Origin: an uncultured bacterium
Lineage (GTDB): Bacteria > Patescibacteriota > Minisyncoccia > Phycocordibacterales > UBA9973
DNA length: 64,000 nucleotides
NCBI GenBank assembly: GCA_903892035.1
Contig: CAITGV010000005.1
Location: 41,011 to 105,010, forward strand
Reading direction: 5' to 3'
The notes under the pieces are model-generated. The model had not been told where the DNA came from, searched no databases, and was given only the letters and a program-made list of their open reading frames with translations. The position numbers and the translations under genes are program-made. This document shows, piece by piece, positions 7,581-58,677 of the stretch (position 1 is the first letter of the stretch; each line of letters opens with the position of its first letter).

Positions 7581-7914
7581 TGTTCAACAATGAGCTACTC
7601 AAGGCCACATTTTCACGATTTGCAAATGAAGTTGCGGATGATTCTACAAAACCCAAACCTTTTGCATAACTCATATCTACAGAATTATCTTTAGACATAT
7701 ATTGCAATTCTAAGTTTGAAACATCGGTTGCGACTGATTTCATTTTAACTTCCAAATTCTTTTTTGCTAAAACATTGAAAACTGTATGCGCCAGAAAATA
7801 AATATATAATATCGCTACAATACCAAAAGATAGAGCTACAATCTTAAACACCCTTTTTTCAAGGTCATTGTTATTTACGATATTTGTTTTTGTTTGTAAT
7901 CTTATTTTTGTCAT
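7570..7914 (-). CDS. ftsL: Cell division protein FtsL-like (small bitopic membrane protein)
   Basis: 114 aa with a single TM helix followed by a coiled-coil-like region, in the conserved position between rsmH and ftsI. Confidence 0.55.
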   Translation of the reverse strand: MTKIRLQTKTNIVNNNDLEKRVFKIVALSFGIVAILYIYFLAHTVFNVLAKKNLEVKMKSVATDVSNLELQYMSKDNSVDMSYAKGLGFVESSATSFANRENVALSSSLLNNEI

Positions 7915-8917
7915 GTTTTTCTATAATTCTTAATTTTGCACTTCTTGATCTTGGGTTTTCTTTAATTTCTTTTTTACTTGATGTAATTGGTTTTTTTGTA
8001 ATCAATTCTCCAATATTTTCATCTTTATATTCTTTAAATAATCTTTTCACTATTCTGTCTTCTAAACTGTGAAATGAAATGACTGCAATGCGCCCTCCAA
8101 TATTTAAAATTTCCATACTTGCCGACAATGCTTTCTTTATTGTTTGCAATTCGTCATTTACTGCTATTCGTAGTGCTTGGAAAGTGCGTGTCGCAAAATG
8201 TGTCTTTTGGTGTCTGTAACTTGCCGGTACAGCATTTTTTATAATTTCAACAAGTTCAAATGTTGTATTGATTTCCTTCGTCTGGCGATACTCTACTATA
8301 AATTTTGCAATTCTTCGTGAATACCTTTCTTCGCCATAACCATAAATAATGTCAGCAATATTTTCTTCGTCCCATTCATTTACAATTTCTTTTGCTGAAA
8401 GCTTATTTACTCCAGCGCGCTCCATTGTCATAAGCAATGGTTCATCTCTCATAAAAGAGAAACCTCGCATAGACTCATCGAGCTGATATGAACTGATTCC
8501 TAAATCAAAAAGTATTGCATCAGCTTTTTTGGCGACTAAGTCCCCTTTTGGGGACTTAGTCGCCAAATCTAGGGCTTTCGCAATTTCAGCAAAACTTCCA
8601 TTATAAGTAAAAATTTTATTACCAACTTTTTTTACTCGCTCTGTCGCTTCGGTAATTGCATCGATATCTTTATCGATACCAATCATTTTCAAATTTTTAC
8701 CAAATTTTTCTGCTATTGCTACACTGTGTCCACCAAGACCAAGTGTCGCATCGATAAAAACACTATCAGACTTTATTTCCAAACCCTCTATAACTTCATT
8801 TAAAAGAACCGGTATATGATTCATAAATTTATAGCACTCCGACATTTCCAAGCTTTTCTGCCAAACTATCTGCTTTCTTTTCAACCATTGCTTTGTATTC
8901 GCTCCAAACTTTGTCAT
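7871..8917 (-). CDS. rsmH: 16S rRNA (cytosine1402-N4)-methyltransferase RsmH (MraW)
   Basis: 348 aa containing the SAM-MTase motifs (FIDATLGLGGHS, DLGISSYQLDE). It also contains an in-frame 34-bp perfect palindrome at 8531-8564. Confidence 0.85.
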   Translation of the reverse strand: MTKFGANTKQWLKRKQIVWQKSLEMSECYKFMNHIPVLLNEVIEGLEIKSDSVFIDATLGLGGHSVAIAEKFGKNLKMIGIDKDIDAITEATERVKKVGNKIFTYNGSFAEIAKALDLATKSPKGDLVAKKADAILFDLGISSYQLDESMRGFSFMRDEPLLMTMERAGVNKLSAKEIVNEWDEENIADIIYGYGEERYSRRIAKFIVEYRQTKEINTTFELVEIIKNAVPASYRHQKTHFATRTFQALRIAVNDELQTIKKALSASMEILNIGGRIAVISFHSLEDRIVKRLFKEYKDENIGELITKKPITSSKKEIKENPRSRSAKLRIIEKHDKNKITNKNKYRK

Positions 8918-11267: not shown

Positions 11268-11390
11268 AGTATTAAAAAAGGAAATAATAGTAATGATTTT
11301 AGGAGCTTGGGAGCGCGACGGCGCGAGCACGAGGAATTTTTTAGCAAAAAAATATCCGTGTCCTAAAATTATTACTATTATGCACTAAAA

Positions 11391-49490: not shown

Positions 49491-50600
49491 TTAAATTTTA
49501 GCAAGAAATTCTTCTACTATTCTCTCTACGTCGGAAGCAGTTTCGGCAGATTCCATTAATTTCACGCGGAGTTCTTTGGCTCCATCGAAATTGTTTACAT
49601 ACGCTTTGTAATGTTTTTTCATTATGGCGAAATTTTTTGATCCACCCAATATTTCTTCAAAAAGTTTTGTGTGTTCTACCATGACACCAAGTTTCTCTCG
49701 GAGCGAAGGAGTGTAAAATTTTTCTTTTGAGAGAGCTCGGGAGTCGCGACGGCGACGGACAGAGAAAATTTTTAGCAAAAAATTTTCGTGTCTTAAAGAA
49801 GAGGAATTTTGCGCTCCGTTGTCTGGCAACGCATTTGCGTGTAAATTACTAAACAACCACGGGTTACCGAAAATGGCTCGGCCGAGCATCACGCCATCAC
49901 AACCAGTTTGTTTTATTTTTTTCCTTCCATCTTCCAAATCTTTCACATCACCATTTCCAATTATTAAAGTCTCCTTCCCCATCTTGTCGCGTATTGCGAC
50001 GGCTTCTTTCACATGCTCCCACCTTGCAGGCACGAGAGACATTTCTTTTCTAGTGCGCGCATGCACAGTGAGTACGGCAATATCTTCAGAAAGTATTTCA
50101 GGAATCCATTCATCGAGTGTCACTTTATTGTAACCCACGCGTGTTTTCACCGACACAGGAATATTTTTTCCTGCATCCTCCACTCCTTGCTTTACAGCTC
50201 TTATAATTTCCCGCGCATGATTTGCATCTTTTATATGCGCAGCGCCTGCACCTTGTTTTTCAATAGTCTTGTCGGGACAACCCATATTTATATCAACTCC
50301 ATCAAAACCGAGTTCTGCAATAAATTTCGCAGCACCGCGCATATTTTCGACATTACTTCCAAATATTTGCGCGACTATCGGTCGCTCGGCTTCAGTATAC
50401 ATAAGGTCTACCATCAATTTCTCTCTGCCAGCAGGATGCATCAAACCATCAGCAGACACAAATTCTGTCCACATCACATCGGACTTACCGTATTTTGCTA
50501 TAAGCCTGCGAAAAGCCGCGTCTGTGACGTCGGCCATCGGAGCAAGACAAAAAATGCCTTTGCCCTCTTTTGCTAAATTTTCCCAAAATCCTTTATTCAT
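49491..50600 (-). CDS. dus: tRNA-dihydrouridine synthase
   Basis: 369 aa with an FMN-binding TIM barrel (..LAPMADVTDAAFR.., ..VDINMGCP..) and a C-terminal helical tRNA-binding domain. Confidence 0.85.
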   Translation of the reverse strand: MNKGFWENLAKEGKGIFCLAPMADVTDAAFRRLIAKYGKSDVMWTEFVSADGLMHPAGREKLMVDLMYTEAERPIVAQIFGSNVENMRGAAKFIAELGFDGVDINMGCPDKTIEKQGAGAAHIKDANHAREIIRAVKQGVEDAGKNIPVSVKTRVGYNKVTLDEWIPEILSEDIAVLTVHARTRKEMSLVPARWEHVKEAVAIRDKMGKETLIIGNGDVKDLEDGRKKIKQTGCDGVMLGRAIFGNPWLFSNLHANALPDNGAQNSSSLRHENFLLKIFSVRRRRDSRALSKEKFYTPSLREKLGVMVEHTKLFEEILGGSKNFAIMKKHYKAYVNNFDGAKELRVKLMESAETASDVERIVEEFLAKI

Positions 50601-52777: not shown

Positions 52778-53644
52778 ATGGACATTCATTCTATTCGAGA
52801 ATTGGATCCAAAACTTGTCCCCGAATCACTTTTTGAAATTCCTCAACCGCCGAAAACACTTTTTATTCGTGGCAATTTTCCTGACAAAGAAAAAATATTT
52901 CTCTGTGTTGTCGGATCTAGAAAATTTACATCATACGGCAGAGATGCGTGTGAAAAACTCATCGAGGGTCTGCGGGGCTACCCTGTCGTCATAGTTTCTG
53001 GTCTTGCGATGGGTATCGACTCAATTGCGCATAAAAAAGCGATGGAAGTCGGGCTCACGACACTCGCTTTCCCGGGAAGTGGACTAATGGATAAAGTAAT
53101 TTTTCCTACATCAAATGTACCACTTGCTAGAAAAATTGTTGAAAGTGGTGGCGCAATTATTTCTGAATTTCCAAATGATTTCAAAGCGACACTCTATAGT
53201 TTTCCTCAACGCAATCGTATAATGGCAGGCATTTCAAAAGCTGTACTTATTATTGAAGCTGAAGAAAAATCTGGCACTCTCATCACAGCTCGCCTTGCTG
53301 TAGAATACAATCGCGACGTTCTCGTCGTGCCGGGTTCTATAAATTCTCCAACATCAAAAGGCACAAACCGCCTCATTCGCCAGGGAGCGACACCCATTAC
53401 AAATAGTGATGAACTTCTTGAAGCATTAGGTTTTGAAGTTGATAATAAAAAAATGGTTCAGCAAGAACTTTTTAATTGTACAGATGATGAGAAAAAAGTT
53501 CTTGAAATTTTGCGTGAACCTTTTGCACGCGATGAATTAATTCGATTGTTAAAAAAGCCGACGCACGAAGCAAATGCCCTGCTTTCGATAATGGAAATAA
53601 AAGGATTGATCAAAGAAGAACTTGGAGAAATTAGAAAAGTGTAG
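52778..53644 (+). CDS. dprA: DNA processing protein DprA (Smf)
   Basis: 288 aa with a Rossmann-like DprA domain (..VVGSRKFTSYG.., ..VIVSGLAMGIDSIAHK.., ..GTLITARLA..) and a C-terminal wH-like extension. dprA-topA adjacency is common in bacteria. Confidence 0.85.
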   Translation: MDIHSIRELDPKLVPESLFEIPQPPKTLFIRGNFPDKEKIFLCVVGSRKFTSYGRDACEKLIEGLRGYPVVIVSGLAMGIDSIAHKKAMEVGLTTLAFPGSGLMDKVIFPTSNVPLARKIVESGGAIISEFPNDFKATLYSFPQRNRIMAGISKAVLIIEAEEKSGTLITARLAVEYNRDVLVVPGSINSPTSKGTNRLIRQGATPITNSDELLEALGFEVDNKKMVQQELFNCTDDEKKVLEILREPFARDELIRLLKKPTHEANALLSIMEIKGLIKEELGEIRKV

Positions 53645-53656
53645 TATTAATGTAAG

Positions 53657-53730
53657 GGTTCGGGAAAATGCTTTTTAAAATAGTCTGGGGATTGTTTCCG
53701 AGGACTTTTTAAAAAGCATTTTCCCGAACC
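53657..53730 (+). repeat. Long hairpin, copy 1: perfect 24-bp outer stem (GGTTCGGGAAAATGCTTTTTAAAA / TTTTAAAAAGCATTTTCCCGAACC), AGTC/GACT inner stem and a 17-nt loop TGGGGATTGTTTCCGAG
   Basis: Read directly. It starts 12 nt after the dprA stop. Its loop and inner stem are shared with copy 2 at 57580-57648, while the outer stems differ in sequence. Confidence 0.8.
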
Positions 53731-53757
53731 TGAACAAATATTGCGATTCCTAAATTT

Positions 53758-56058
53758 ATGAAATTACTTATTGTAGAATCACCATCGAAAGCAAAGACTA
53801 TTGAAAAATATCTTGCAGGAGAATATACAGTCCGCGCTTCTGTCGGGCATATTCGTGATTTACCAAAATCAAATAAAAAAGCAATAGATATTCCCGCTGG
53901 CTTTGTTCCCTTTTATGAAATTTCAAAAGGAAAAGAAAAAGTTGTTCACGAACTTCAAGGTCTTGCTGAAAAAGCAAAAGAAATAATGCTTGCGACTGAC
54001 CCGGACCGCGAAGGAGAAGCTATATCGTGGCACATAAAAGAATTGCTCGATGCTGACAAAAAAGTCAAAGCTCCTATTAAACGTGTCGCTTTTCATGAAA
54101 TTACAAAAGAAGCAGTAGAAATTGCCTTACAAAGTCCAAGAGATATTGATGCAAATCTTGTGAAAGCTCAAGAGGCACGCCGAGTACTCGACCGTCTTGT
54201 GGGTTACGATTTGTCTGGATTAATTTGGAAAAAAGTTCGTTATGGACTCTCTGCAGGACGTGTTCAATCCCCTGCACTTCGTATAATAATGGAACGTGAA
54301 AGAGAAATTCGTGCTTTCATTCCTGAAAAATATTGGACACTCGATGGTTTATTTGAAACCGACCCTTCGACTAGCTCAGGGCGAGAAAAAATAAAATTAC
54401 AATTGACTTGTAATGAAGAACCTCGAGACGAAAAAATTGTAAATAAAATTTTAGATATTGGAAAGAAAAATCCTTGGCTTGTAAGTGAAGTCAAAGAGTC
54501 CGAGCAAAAGCGTTCCCCTCGCGCACCTTTCACCACTAGCACTTTGCAGCAAGTTGCAAGTACGCGTCTTGGTTTTTCTCCTTCACGTACAATGCAAGTC
54601 GCACAAAAACTTTACGAAGCAGGACATATCACATATATGCGTACAGATAGTACAAATGTTTCAGCTGTAGCACAGACTGCAATACTTGCACTAGTAGAAA
54701 AAAAATACGGAAAAGAATATGCTGAAGCTCATACATATAAAACAAAAAGTAAAAATGCTCAGGAAGCTCACGAAGCAATTCGCCCAACTCACATAGACGC
54801 AAACTCTGTCGGAAATAATGATGAACAAAAAAAACTCTACAAATTAATTTGGGAGAGAGCAATTTCTTCACAAATGTCAGATGCTAAATTAATGAAAACA
54901 AAAGTGAGCGCTACTGTTGTCGGTCACGACGACCCTTCGACAAGCTCAGGGCAAAGCATTCCATCATTTTCAGCAAATGGCTCTCGTGTGCTTTTCCCAG
55001 GCTGGCTTGTGTGCGACACAGATGCTCGCGGTGAAGATGTGGAACTTCCAAAAGTAAGTGAAGGAGAAAAATTAAAACTTCTTGAATTAAATAGTACAGA
55101 AAAAGCTACAGAGCCACCAAATCGATATAGTGAAGCGGGCCTTGTGAAAGAACTCGAAGCTCGAGGAATTGGTCGCCCGTCTACGTATGCATCTATCATG
55201 CGTACAATAGAAGAGCGTGGTTATGTAGGAAAACAAGGGCGCACACTTTTTCCTACCGATACTGGAGATGTAGTTTCAAGTTTCTTGGAAGAGCATTTTG
55301 CAAATTATATAAGTGATACCTTTACAGCAGAAATGGAAGATGAACTCGACGATATCGCAGATGGAAAAAGAGAATATGTAAAAACTCTCAGGGATTTTTA
55401 TGTGCCTTTTTTGAAAGAAGTAAAAGTCAAAGATAAATTGGCGAAAGCTACAAATATGGGTGAAGCGCCAGAAGGAATGCTTTGTCCAAAATGTGGAGGT
55501 AAAATGATTATCAAACTTGCTCGTAATGGAAAATTTTATTCATGCGCAAATTATCCCGAATGTGTAGGGGCAAGAAAACTCGATGGTGAAGAAATGGCTG
55601 GACCAAAAGATCTAGGCCGTCCTTGTCCAAAATGTGGAATTGCAATTCCAGATACCGGCCTTGATAAAAATGGAAAGAAAAAAAGAGTAAGTAAAAAAGT
55701 GCAAGAATTGGGACACTTGGTTCTTCGTGAAGGAAAATTTGGTTCATTTATTTCTTGCTCAAGATATCCAAAATGTAAATACATAGAACAAGATGAAGAA
55801 GAGTTGAAGAAAAAAATGACCGATGTGCAGTGTCCAGTTTGCAAAAAAGGAATGATGATGGAACGTCGTGGACGTTTTGGAATATTTTATTCTTGTTCAA
55901 ATTATCCTGATTGTAAGAATGCCATAAAAGCAAAACCCACAGGCAGAATTTGTGACATTTGTGGAAGTCTCATGATGGAAGGCACAAAAACAATTCCAGA
56001 ACGTTGCTCAAATAAACTCTGTCAAAACCACAACCCGCATAAAATCGAGAAAAAATAA
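53758..56058 (+). CDS. topA: DNA topoisomerase I
   Basis: 766 aa with a TOPRIM domain, the active-site Tyr region (GHITYMRTDST) and three C-terminal C4 zinc-ribbon repeats (CPKCGG.., CPKCG.., CPVCKKG..). Confidence 0.95.
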   Translation: MKLLIVESPSKAKTIEKYLAGEYTVRASVGHIRDLPKSNKKAIDIPAGFVPFYEISKGKEKVVHELQGLAEKAKEIMLATDPDREGEAISWHIKELLDADKKVKAPIKRVAFHEITKEAVEIALQSPRDIDANLVKAQEARRVLDRLVGYDLSGLIWKKVRYGLSAGRVQSPALRIIMEREREIRAFIPEKYWTLDGLFETDPSTSSGREKIKLQLTCNEEPRDEKIVNKILDIGKKNPWLVSEVKESEQKRSPRAPFTTSTLQQVASTRLGFSPSRTMQVAQKLYEAGHITYMRTDSTNVSAVAQTAILALVEKKYGKEYAEAHTYKTKSKNAQEAHEAIRPTHIDANSVGNNDEQKKLYKLIWERAISSQMSDAKLMKTKVSATVVGHDDPSTSSGQSIPSFSANGSRVLFPGWLVCDTDARGEDVELPKVSEGEKLKLLELNSTEKATEPPNRYSEAGLVKELEARGIGRPSTYASIMRTIEERGYVGKQGRTLFPTDTGDVVSSFLEEHFANYISDTFTAEMEDELDDIADGKREYVKTLRDFYVPFLKEVKVKDKLAKATNMGEAPEGMLCPKCGGKMIIKLARNGKFYSCANYPECVGARKLDGEEMAGPKDLGRPCPKCGIAIPDTGLDKNGKKKRVSKKVQELGHLVLREGKFGSFISCSRYPKCKYIEQDEEELKKKMTDVQCPVCKKGMMMERRGRFGIFYSCSNYPDCKNAIKAKPTGRICDICGSLMMEGTKTIPERCSNKLCQNHNPHKIEKK

Positions 56059-56082: not shown

Positions 56083-57570
56083 GTGCATAATGGTTATATG
56101 ACTGATGTAAACGAAATTTTTGAATTAGATGGTGTAATGAGCCAAAAAGACAAGGAGCTCGTCACTAAAGCTTACGAATTTGCTAAAAAAGCTCACGAAG
56201 GAACACTACGAAAAAGTGGTGATCCTTATTTTATACACGTCTTTGAAACTTCAAAAACTTTGGCGCGAATTGGGATGGATGCAAAAACAATTGCTGCAGG
56301 ACTACTTCATGACACACTCGAAGATACTACAGTGACAGAAGAAGAAATGGAAAAAGAATTTGGTATTGAAATAGTGAAGCTTGTAAATGGAGTGACAAAA
56401 TTGGGAAAAGTAAAATATCGTGGACGTGAAAGACACGTCGAAAGTTTGCGAAAATTCTTCATGGCTATGGCGGACGATTTGAGAATTTTAATAATCAAAC
56501 TCGCGGACAGACTTCACAATATAAGCACTATTGAACATTTACCCGAAGAAAAAAGAAAAAGAATTGCAATTGAAACAATTGAAATTCACGCTCGACTTGC
56601 GGACCGCATCGGTATGGGAATGCTCAAGGGTGACCTCGAAGACTACGCTTTCCCTTATGCTTACCCAAAAGAATATGCTGAAGTTGTAAAACTTTTGGAA
56701 ATTAGAAAAGCTACAAATGAAAAGGAGTTAATGGATGTTACAAATATACTTTCAAAAGAACTTACTGAACAAAAAATAAAAATATTTGAAATTGACCAAA
56801 GAGTAAAACATAAATACAGTCTTTGGAAAAAATTAGAGCGCTACAATATGGATATAGATAAAATCTACGACATTATTGCAATACGTGTTGTCGTAGGTAC
56901 AATTGGTGAGTGCTACCACACACTTGGTATAATTCATAAACTTTGGAATCCCCTCCCAGGACGCATCAAAGATTACATCGCAGTTCCAAAACCAAATGGC
57001 TATAGATCACTACACACTACTATTTTTACTGGCAATGGTGGAATATTGGAAATTCAAATTCGAACACAAGAAATGCATGCCGAAGCAGCATACGGTATAG
57101 CAGCGCATTTTGTATATAAAGAACATGGAATAAAAAATAAAAAAAAGAATGCTGAACCTGTAGAAAAAAAACTTGAATGGATTGACCAGTTGAAAGAATT
57201 GCAAAAAGTTGTCGCAGAACCGGCAAAATTTCTCGAACATTTAAAAACAGATTTTTTCCGAGATAGAATATTTATTTTTACACCAAAGGGTGATGTCGTA
57301 GATTTACCGGAAGACTCTGGCACTATTGATTTTGCTTTTGCAATTCACTCAGATATTGGTTTTCATGTATCAGGAGCAAAGATAAATGGCAAACTTTCAC
57401 CACTTTCGACAAAATTGAAAAATGGTGACATCGTAGAAATAATTGTTAGTAAAAATTCTCATCCAGCTTCTAAATGGCTCGACTATACAAAGACATCGCT
57501 CGCAAAAAGGCACATTCGTTCTTATCTTGAAGAAAATAGTTTGTATAATAAGTTTTTCGGAAAAAAGTAG
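56083..57570 (+). CDS. (p)ppGpp synthetase/hydrolase, short RSH (HD + synthetase + TGS domains only)
   Basis: 495 aa with an HD motif (HDTLED), a RelA/SpoT synthetase domain (..GYRSLHTTIF..) and a TGS domain (..IFIFTPKGDVVDLPEDSGTIDFAF..). No ACT/helical C-terminal region. Confidence 0.85.
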   Translation: MHNGYMTDVNEIFELDGVMSQKDKELVTKAYEFAKKAHEGTLRKSGDPYFIHVFETSKTLARIGMDAKTIAAGLLHDTLEDTTVTEEEMEKEFGIEIVKLVNGVTKLGKVKYRGRERHVESLRKFFMAMADDLRILIIKLADRLHNISTIEHLPEEKRKRIAIETIEIHARLADRIGMGMLKGDLEDYAFPYAYPKEYAEVVKLLEIRKATNEKELMDVTNILSKELTEQKIKIFEIDQRVKHKYSLWKKLERYNMDIDKIYDIIAIRVVVGTIGECYHTLGIIHKLWNPLPGRIKDYIAVPKPNGYRSLHTTIFTGNGGILEIQIRTQEMHAEAAYGIAAHFVYKEHGIKNKKKNAEPVEKKLEWIDQLKELQKVVAEPAKFLEHLKTDFFRDRIFIFTPKGDVVDLPEDSGTIDFAFAIHSDIGFHVSGAKINGKLSPLSTKLKNGDIVEIIVSKNSHPASKWLDYTKTSLAKRHIRSYLEENSLYNKFFGKK

Positions 57571-57579
57571 AAGTACGTA

Positions 57580-57648
57580 ATAAGAAATAGCGTTTTAAAA
57601 TGGTCTGGGGATTTTTTCCGAGGACCTTTTACAAACGCTATTTCTTAT
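57580..57648 (+). repeat. Long hairpin, copy 2: 16-bp outer stem (ATAAGAAATAGCGTTT / AAACGCTATTTCTTAT), GGTC/GACC inner stem and a 17-nt loop TGGGGATTTTTTCCGAG
   Basis: Read directly. It starts 9 nt after the rel stop. The core TTTTAAAAT(A/G)GTCTGGGGATT(G/T)TTTCCGAGGAC is shared with copy 1. Confidence 0.8.
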
Positions 57649-57660
57649 GAAGTTTATGTT

Positions 57661-58677
57661 CTATATCGAAAACTTATTTAAATTGTAGAGATCGGCTTCT
57701 TCTTCAGATTTTTGCATTTCATCTTTTGAGCGATCATCCTCTGCTTTACTTTCTTCTAAATTTTCAGTCGGTAAAGTAGACTCTTCGGGATTTTTTACTT
57801 CATTTTGTATTTGATTTGCTTCAAAACGCTCCATCATCATATTTGGATTACTATTTTTTTCAGTATGCATCATTTCAAGAATTGTGCGCAAATCCTCTGT
57901 AGTAAAATAATCAATCAATATTTGTCCCCCACTTTCTTTTCTTTCAATGTGTACACGAGTGCCGAAAGCTTCACCGAGTTTTTCTTCTATCTCCATAATT
58001 TCTGGATCAGGCAAAAGTTCTTTCTTGCGAGCCCGATCAAAGGCAATTTTTCTTGCTGTACGCTCTGCTTCACGAACACTAATTTTTTTATATAAAATTT
58101 CTTTAAATAAAACTGTCTGCTCCTCTGGTCTGTCGGAAAGCATCATCAAAGGTCTTGTGTGGCCTTCGCTAATTTTTCCTTCAGAAAGCGCGTTCAACAT
58201 TTCTTCAGGAAGATTTAGCAAGCGAATTGTATTTGAAACATATTCGCGACTTTTTCCAACTTTTGTTCCGACTTGAGCATGAGTAAATTTGAATTCATCC
58301 ACCAATCTTTGAAATGCTCGTGCACGATCTACAGAATTCAAATCTTCTCTTTGTAAATTTTCAATGATAGCAATTTCAAGCTTCGTCATTGAATCGTCTC
58401 CTTCGCGAATTATTACCGGTATTTGAGTCACGCCAGCAAGCTTTGAAGCACGCAAGCGTCGCTCACCAGCAATAAGCTCGTATTCTACAGCAAGACCTCC
58501 GTCTTCCTTTAAAATCTCTACACGCGAGACCGTGAGAGGCTGAATGAGACCATATTGGCGGATAGAGTCTGCTAAATCTCGAAGTGGTCCTTCTTCAAAC
58601 TCCCGTCGTGGTTGGTACGGATTTGGTTTAATCTTTTCTACGTCTACAAAAAAAATTGAATTTGAATATAATGGCAT
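57661..58677 (-). CDS. parB: ParB/Spo0J-family partition protein with an extended acidic C-terminal tail
   Basis: 338 aa with a ParB N-terminal CTPase-like domain (..GLIQPLTV.., GERRLRA box), an HTH, and a ~90-aa Glu/Asp/Lys-rich C-terminus. No parA is adjacent. Confidence 0.8.
   Translation of the reverse strand: MPLYSNSIFFVDVEKIKPNPYQPRREFEEGPLRDLADSIRQYGLIQPLTVSRVEILKEDGGLAVEYELIAGERRLRASKLAGVTQIPVIIREGDDSMTKLEIAIIENLQREDLNSVDRARAFQRLVDEFKFTHAQVGTKVGKSREYVSNTIRLLNLPEEMLNALSEGKISEGHTRPLMMLSDRPEEQTVLFKEILYKKISVREAERTARKIAFDRARKKELLPDPEIMEIEEKLGEAFGTRVHIERKESGGQILIDYFTTEDLRTILEMMHTEKNSNPNMMMERFEANQIQNEVKNPEESTLPTENLEESKAEDDRSKDEMQKSEEEADLYNLNKFSI

Follow-up and report, generated by a model that had tools for sequence, protein, structure and literature searches.

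The stretch of DNA considered here, 64 kb of contig CAITGV010000005.1 from an uncultured patescibacterium and referred to throughout as the window, carries two long hairpins on its forward strand, one between dprA and topA and the other between the convergent genes rel and parB (Table 1). They belong to a family of Paceibacteria-wide palindromic repeat elements of about 75-100 nt, the majority of which lie inside housekeeping genes and are apparently translated as part of the host protein.

Copy 1 starts 12 nt past the dprA stop (53644) and, on re-reading of the sequence, is just as the original prediction had described it, with an outer helix of two 24-nt arms that are 100% complementary (53657-53680 / 53707-53730), a single bulged T (T53681) further in, AGTC/GACT pairs and the 17-nt loop TGGGGATTGTTTCCGAG; the 23-nt tip is at 53683-53705. 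Copy 2 starts 9 nt past the rel stop (57570), has its tip at 57603-57625 and closes with GGTC/GACC. Its loop, with one substitution relative to copy 1, and its closure are those predicted, but the outer stem is perfect over 13 bp only (ATAAGAAATAGCG/CGCTATTTCTTAT), with one C unpaired in the inner part and arms that reach 57575-57653 at 84% complementarity. The outer helices of the two copies are unrelated in sequence, and the copies resemble each other over the apical 45 nt only.

The 23-mer GTCTGGGGATTNTTTCCGAGGAC, with one N, occurs twice in the window where 0.00 occurrences are expected (100 shuffles), and the RNA minimum free energy (MFE) is -51.2 kcal/mol for copy 1 (z = -11.6) and -35.6 kcal/mol for copy 2 (z = -8.2). 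When the whole window was scanned with a covariance model built from the family, the two copies were the sole matches, copy 1 at 53647-53741 with 83.6 bits on the + strand and 30.6 on the - strand and copy 2 at 57567-57662 with 76.2 and 25.2 bits. The loop of the window copies pairs further on the + strand only, through GG/CC and two G-U pairs, or alternatively GGA/UCC in the MFE fold. A search of Rfam at the gathering threshold gave only three tRNAs in the window, and at E<=10 the matches at the hairpin sites were weak and spurious (miRNA, rox1), so that no credible family was found there. Neither copy is followed by a T-tract and neither was called terminator-like in a terminator scan of the window, which agrees with the earlier view that these hairpins, 9-12 nt past the dprA and rel stops and with no U-tract, are not intrinsic terminators.

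Table 1. Hairpin elements of the window and the genes that flank copies 1 and 2
Feature	Position	Strand	Setting or matches
Family-1 palindromic element, copy 1	53657..53730	+	113-nt dprA-topA spacer
Family-1 palindromic element, copy 2	57580..57648	+	90-nt spacer, convergent rel/parB
Family-2 element	49700..49817	+	In frame in dus (49491-50600, -); Dus Pfam match spans the insert
Second family-2 element	11284..11381	+	21-nt arms, 95% complementary; tip GGAGCTTGGGAGCGCGACGGCGCGAGCACGAGGAATTTTTTAGCAAAAAAATATCC
dprA	52778..53644	+	100% identical to P0001, PF02481
topA	53758..56058	+	Downstream of copy 1; Toprim, Topoisom_bac, Zn_ribbon_Top1
rel (RelA/SpoT family)	56083..57570	+	Syntenic L073 gene has HD_4, RelA_SpoT and TGS domains
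parB	57661..58677	-	Convergent with rel, stop 12 nt after copy 2; ParB_N, HTH_ParB, ParB_C

A hairpin family of Paceibacteria

The exact 23-nt tip was found in 70 stretches of species-representative genomes, making 74 copies when the two of the window are counted, with 1-6 exact copies per genome assembly, and the option of a genome-wide repeat that had been raised beforehand is borne out by these numbers. It is also present in 104 metagenome stretches, mostly from groundwater, and is absent from the viral contigs that were searched. The version of the arms that is specific to the window (AAAATRGTC...GACYTTTT) had 0 matches in metagenomes, thus no close relative with the window's own copies was found. 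With one mis-binned exception the named carriers are Patescibacteria, under the labels Paceibacterota, Nomurabacteria, Zambryskibacteria or Minisyncoccia, and some third-party annotation (TPA) bins among the carriers are labelled Saccharibacteria. A 1.9-kb element-bearing contig (L055, CAYOFO010000101.1) is binned as Gammaproteobacteria, and many bins among the CAY*/CAZ* TPA records carry the Saccharibacteria label; as element and flanks are Paceibacteria-like in all of these, mis-binning or coarse labels are suggested.

All copies are long hairpins of modular build. About one quarter of copies have as their outermost part a GC-closed 3x3 purine loop (GCGNAGC ... GYGRAGC), which stands at a fixed 20/19 nt from the tip; it was considered as a universal end of the element and rejected, as the fixed spacing is kept in only that quarter. 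Next inward is a helix of about 15 bp of free sequence, followed by a U4-5/A4-5 helix and a tandem G.A/A.G loop (G.A/A.G in 52-56 of 72 copies), beside which an R-Y pair covaries perfectly (A-U in 51 copies, G-C in 15) and a 1-nt bulge adjoins. The apex is made of GGUC/GACC, a 1x3 loop (U / GAG) and GG/CC closing a short tip. A resemblance of the purine loops to the K-turn or the sarcin-ricin loop was rejected by eye, since the bulge is misplaced and there is no GAGA loop. The two window copies have ordinary A-T and G-C pairs (AAAA/TTTT; GGTT/AACC) in place of the purine loops, and these lineage-specific arms are common to the two, a hint of concerted evolution between copies within a genome.

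The apical module of about 45 nt is common to distant lineages, and the outer helix drifts through compensatory changes. In an ungapped alignment of 72 copies both sides change in 27 of the 31 outer-helix pairs, and 80% of outer-helix cells are paired compared with 61% in shuffles. The covariation score is 0.483 compared with 0.158 in shuffles, none of 500 shuffles reaching 0.483 and slid controls staying at or below 0.23, and so the conserved tip with compensatory stems that was first proposed from two copies is upheld across the family. A few copies differ at 1-4 positions of the tip, including a compensatory change from G-C to A-U, and one is truncated. In a form referred to as variant 3 GGTCTGG...CCGAGGACC is kept around a longer apical hairpin, a separate tip family (GTGAYGWTGCRAAGCAGGATATC) is found between the same inner arms, and further tip families have branched tips.

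Copies inside genes and the variation of their sites

A stop-free long open reading frame (ORF) spans the element in 48 of the 74 genome copies (42 antisense to the motif, 6 sense), and 27 of 39 new non-redundant metagenome copies are inside long ORFs (23 antisense, 4 sense), so that host gene and motif run in opposite directions in 65 of 75 genic copies. As these are housekeeping ORFs and mostly antisense, the family as a whole does not fit the suggestion of the original prediction that the hairpin is an RNA element co-oriented with genes at their 3' ends. Hosts with a Pfam match on either side of the element include a class-I tRNA synthetase (IleRS-like), UvrD/PcrA, PheT, RecJ, a GatA-type amidase, IscS/NifS, TrmD, the CCA-adding enzyme, DnaE and KsgA. 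The tip is translated as VLGKNPQT (22 copies), SSEKIPRP (8) or GPRKKSPD (6) in the three antisense frames and as GLGI(V/F)SEDL or SGDFFRGP in two sense frames, and this use of five frames points to a constraint on the nucleic acid and not on the peptide.

The apical module is poor in stop codons, all six frames being open in 18% of copies compared with 0.1% of shuffles, and the mean number of open frames out of six is 3.95 in genic elements, 2.16 in intergenic ones and 1.29 in shuffles. In an AlphaFold model of TrmD with the element, the insert is a low-confidence coil (predicted local distance difference test, pLDDT, <50 at residues 79-94) placed between a conserved helix and a conserved strand. 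Since every genic copy is open and in register, it would seem that genic elements are translated through and are neither removed nor bypassed. The element persists solely where it is harmless, in gene-3' spacers, as with both window copies, and at surface loops in essential proteins, the frame of translation being that in which it landed; the intergenic copies mostly abut a stop codon, which may belong to a gene on either strand.

Comparison of orthologous sites reveals presence and absence of the element. In a syntenic relative of the window (L073, DprA 68% identical) the dprA-topA spacer is without the element and the rel and parB stops abut, and three more relatives (66-72% identical) also have no element downstream of dprA. 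As both sites are empty in the syntenic relatives examined, the window copies are lineage-specific insertions. In most of 120 TrmD homologues at least 74% identical to a carrier the loop is empty (KAFSKIKIKDKKKTKIILFS); the exact family-1 peptide is present in about 18 and a form with 1-2 substitutions in 3, and unrelated inserts or a tip-less remnant are found in others. At the DNA level the empty TrmD site is 99 nt and the filled site 150 nt; one allele (L079) is the filled form less exactly 33 nt of tip with the stems intact, and in another (L080) the stems are unchanged and the tip is altered. This TrmD loop, between 'KAF' and 'KIILFS', was also seen to be a hypervariable hot spot (P0121-P0240; L015, L040, L078-L080), as proteins at least 74% identical are either empty there or have one of at least 8 types of insert, several of them recognisable translations of hairpin elements.

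Four states were found at the KsgA site, namely the family-1 tip, the same tip flipped (L056), another tip family on the same arms (L050) and a tip-less hairpin that is shorter by 42 nt (L059). At two loops of IscS and one of dus, genomes differ in whether they hold family 1 or the branched family 2. In IscS nearly the whole hairpin is extra (+22 to +27 amino acids) relative to tip-less paralogues or to E. coli IscS. An origin of the outer arms by inverted duplication of host DNA was therefore rejected for IscS; a partial extension of the helix from host DNA is possible, as one helix (L036) runs into conserved PFFH codons.

From such comparisons the whole hairpin is additional DNA relative to empty orthologous sites. 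Close relatives have stems in common and differ in their tips, whilst distant lineages have the tip in common and differ in their stems. No target-site duplication or direct repeat was recognisable at the filled and empty TrmD alleles, the rel/parB junction or the window sites, the genomes compared being too diverged for a base-exact empty site.

The window also holds two elements of family 2. The one in dus has a long outer helix and a branched tip with GGGAGTCGCGACGGCGACG and an A/T hairpin, and it occupies the same protein site as the family-1 element in the dus of another genome (L070). The other is intergenic, between two minus-strand genes, and its tip is near-identical to those of the IscS copies of L036 and L042; a mechanical ORF call begins at a GTG inside it, the likely true start being the adjoining downstream ATG (MASLEEIKE...). 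Inside a 348-amino-acid minus-strand ORF (7871-8917) there is also a G+C-rich hairpin (8528-8567) whose 18 bp are perfect (TTTGGCGACTAAGTCCCC/GGGGACTTAGTCGCCAAA) around a TTTT loop and whose sequence is unrelated to families 1 and 2. More recurrent hairpin families with long composite tips were seen in L020 (6609-6731), L039 (614-729), L047 (5078-5182) and at IscS site A of L016/L028, examples of the tips being GGTACGAATTTTTTGAAGCTTAAAAAATTC...CTCGGCTCGTCAGCC and the sub-hairpin GGCTGACGAGCC, and altogether 152 hairpins with at least 16 pairs were counted in 604 kb of Paceibacteria DNA.

Strand orientation

Of 113 copies, 94 have the motif on the strand that is rich in C and poor in genes. For 63 of the 74 genome copies the GC skew of the flanking 8 kb, taken in the orientation of the motif, is negative, and for 63 of 74 the coding majority is on the strand opposite the motif (p = 5e-10); the polarity is repeated in the independent metagenome set (31/39), and intergenic genome copies obey it as well (17 vs 2). 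Copies in random orientation within coding sequences had been named beforehand as the sign of a selfish palindromic repeat; copies in coding sequences are indeed found, which points to such a repeat rather than to an RNA element, but their orientation is strongly polar and not random. All four elements of the window share the + strand, and over the first ~52 kb this strand is C-rich. Several hosts that are read in the sense of the motif belong to the minority strand of a region that otherwise obeys the rule, among them dnaE, cca and the dprA-topA-rel island of the window.

At about 52.8 kb of the window, between serS (-) and dprA (+), the gene strand and the local GC skew change sign. The dprA-topA-rel genes form a short + island in surroundings that are otherwise minus-strand and C-rich on +, an arrangement that is syntenic in relatives (L073). 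In another relative, L075 (1103-2349), serS is apparently split into ORFs of 114 and 287 amino acids, which could be due to a frameshift, an assembly error or a disruptive insertion.

The two strands do not fold equally well. In 70 of 71 copies the better fold is that of the motif strand, which differs from its complement by a mean of -8.8 kcal/mol, -4.6 of it from the tip, and G-U pairs in the outer helix number 139 on the motif strand and 86 on the reverse. In the L016/L028 pair there are G.T intermediates on the motif strand at positions that form Watson-Crick pairs in the other genome.

Origin and maintenance of the hairpins

Palindromic repeats read in frame are already known as a kind. 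Full-text literature on the candidate phyla radiation (CPR), Patescibacteria and Nomurabacteria gave no earlier description of the present elements, although the coverage was incomplete and this is absence of evidence only, so that the Paceibacteria family is, as far as was found, not previously described. The nearest likeness is to the Rickettsia palindromic element (RPE), a small palindromic repeat of a reduced genome that is found in spacers and in frame in unrelated essential proteins (PMC10969869). Both are dispersed palindromic repeats with several copies per genome and strong hairpins, both are frequently inserted in frame in unrelated housekeeping genes as a peptide segment compatible with the fold, and both are without a transposase of their own and have orthologous positions common to species (PMC10969869). 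The likeness would be one of analogy and membership is not claimed, as the hosts here are Patescibacteria, another phylum. The Paceibacteria element is shorter (about 75-100 nt, compared with about 150 bp for RPE), and whereas RPE families each encode a conserved peptide it is read in 3 antisense and 2 sense frames. Unlike RPE it is conserved over the apical ~45 nt only, its outer helix is free and its tips are exchangeable, several tip families occupy the same permissive loops, it is strongly polar and it has fewer copies.

Other small repeats are less alike. Repetitive extragenic palindromic (REP) sequences are extragenic and high-copy, with 20-40 nt and a conserved stem with a GTAG/CGTC head (PMC3733652), whereas here the tip is conserved, the outer stem variable and the majority of copies intragenic. 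The REP/REPIN system with its REP-associated tyrosine transposase (RAYT) and the IS200/IS605 family do provide a likeness in that hairpin repeats, imperfect and with conserved bulges, are recognised as folded single strands. A replication-related orientation bias is documented for IS200/IS605 (PMC5027513, PMC6006769, PMC3333891); the bias found here is relative to GC skew and the coding strand (63/74, 31/39), for which replication and transcription are confounded. [quoted passage not shown] Coding palindromes, long inverted repeats translated within protein genes, are found in the mitochondria of Nematomorpha (PMC6649704). These, and the palindromes of Methanocaldococcus jannaschii considered next, are of unrelated lineages and sequences and are without modules of conserved tip and variable stem or a polarity of replicore or gene direction. 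The M. jannaschii repeats are reportedly palindromic with coding potential (Suyama et al. 2005).

On balance we lean, without great confidence, towards the hairpin being a palindromic element of the RPE type, non-autonomous and with an apical module that is copied or exchanged. The apical module would be the unit that is propagated, or copy-corrected (gene-converted), between loci, and a structure-specific enzyme acting in trans may handle it as a folded single strand. If hairpin formation is needed for this handling, the compensatory stems would be explained. The orientation bias might arise from a strand-specific step at the replication fork, at insertion as in IS200/IS605, where single-strand transposition is biased to the lagging-strand template (PMC5027513, PMC6006769). 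Alternatively the polarity may come from a faster loss of copies that have the stronger hairpin on the lagging-strand template. Deletion of hairpins is said to depend on orientation (Trinh and Sinden, 1991), and the precise tip deletions are the expected products of such a process.

Several points weigh against the copied element. Neither a transposase nor a target-site duplication nor a terminal inverted repeat could be identified, and no Y1 (RAYT) transposase is among the 10 Pfam-scanned ORFs of about 42.9-61.4 kb, the rest of the window and genome not having been searched; dprA, topA and rel are housekeeping genes by annotation. Copy number is low (1-6 exact copies in a genome, 2 in the 64 kb of the window); no near-identical pair of whole copies, which would be proof of recent transposition, was seen; and the cases in which replication and transcription are discordant are few (5 vs 3, and in the second set 2 in line with the host gene and 4 plain exceptions). 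The internal loops, conserved and rich in purines, and the fixed spacing of 20/19 nt have the look of a module recognised by a protein. Across 20 orthologous pairs four-fold sites are saturated, with an identity of 0.36, and identity rises through the variable helix (0.55) and the inner arms (0.81) to the tip (23/23), this last being partly ascertained as both members of each pair were found by an exact-tip search. Neutral 23-mers would differ at such divergence, so the tip must be either continually re-copied or purified at each locus; a purely selfish decay would need the continual re-copying, and purifying selection at the level of the host explains exact tips equally simply.

The main alternative, though a less likely one, is a structured signal maintained by the host, in which the hairpin of the motif strand would bind a putative conserved Paceibacteria protein, either as RNA transcribed opposite to most genes or in the single-stranded DNA of one of the replicative strands. 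Roles in replication or repair, chromosome organisation or RNA processing can be envisaged, with purifying selection keeping copies even in coding sequence. The polar orientation, together with a tip far more conserved than neutral sites, means that selection on a strand-specific structure is still possible, and it is consistent with such a signal that an exact tip and inner arms 81% identical are kept where four-fold sites are saturated, that one consensus extends across dozens of species, that the purine loops are conserved non-Watson-Crick structures with a perfectly covarying neighbour pair and a basal loop at fixed spacing, that one strand folds better in 70 of 71 copies and that variant 3 retains GGTCTGG...CCGAGGACC despite its longer apical hairpin. 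However, the tip is dispensable at single orthologous sites, where it can be deleted, replaced or flipped, and many relatives are empty, including at both window sites in the syntenic relatives examined; the window copies have their purine loops swapped for plain pairs, copy number is low and variable and there is no Rfam family. We know of no candidate binding protein for the hairpin. A more particular version, a strand-specific signal kept within essential coding sequence and oriented with the fork or with transcription, its purine loops read by a putative conserved protein, is a slightly fainter prospect again; it might serve in priming or restart, mark a site polar with respect to the fork or to transcription, or be where antisense RNA is processed.

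That the hairpin acts in cis in the sense transcript as an RNA element of gene 3' ends, be it a factor-dependent terminator, a 3'-end stabiliser or a processing site, is improbable. In its favour, the two window copies start 9-12 nt past a + stop codon and are co-oriented with dprA and rel, and the intergenic members of the family mostly abut a stop codon too. Very stable 3' hairpins can protect mRNA, as REP elements do. However, about two thirds of copies are within coding sequences, 65 of 75 genic copies are antisense to their host gene, the intergenic copies follow stops of genes on either strand and the syntenic dprA and rel 3' ends of relatives are without the element. The hairpins are also unlike Rho-independent terminators, with no T-tract (or U-tract in the RNA), no terminator call at the window copies and most copies intragenic or antisense. 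The two window copies may nevertheless have an incidental effect at the 3' ends they adjoin.

It is more improbable still that the hairpins are quasi-palindromes formed locally, by template switching during replication at fragile loops and with no copying between loci. Template switching generates perfect inverted repeats (PMC10710096), and the perfect or near-perfect arms, the precise 33- and 42-nt tip deletions and the extension of the L036 helix into conserved host codons would all be in keeping with it. It leaves unexplained the identical, non-palindromic 23-nt tip and inner arms at >100 unrelated loci and the discrete tip families common to several genomes, and as a sole mechanism it is contradicted by the shared tip sequence, although it may contribute to the maintenance of stems.

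The DNA-uptake signal linked to competence that the original prediction had allowed, for which nothing speaks other than the position of copy 1 near dprA, is scarcely credible: known DNA uptake sequences and uptake signal sequences (DUS/USS) are short motifs at about 1 per kb in both orientations, whereas the hairpin has a different architecture, a polar orientation and a density of about 1 per 30 kb (2 per 64 kb, 1-6 per genome), and four syntenic relatives have no element at dprA.

Palindromic repeats translated in essential genes are a rarity of the textbooks for which Rickettsia is the paradigm, and a widespread analogue in CPR bacteria means that the phenomenon recurs in independently reduced genomes. 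Some of the insertions in CPR proteins that lack an explanation are thereby given a concrete cause, and annotators and structure predictors are cautioned that loops of 15-40 residues in such proteins may be repeat-encoded. The modular anatomy, the hot spots occupied by multiple families and the strand polarity go beyond the RPE model, and comparison across the family is a tractable way to ask by what means hairpin repeats spread and what makes one strand the preferred one. If the hairpin were instead a signal kept by its hosts, it would amount to a genome-wide cis-code overlaid on the protein-coding sequence of ultra-small bacteria.

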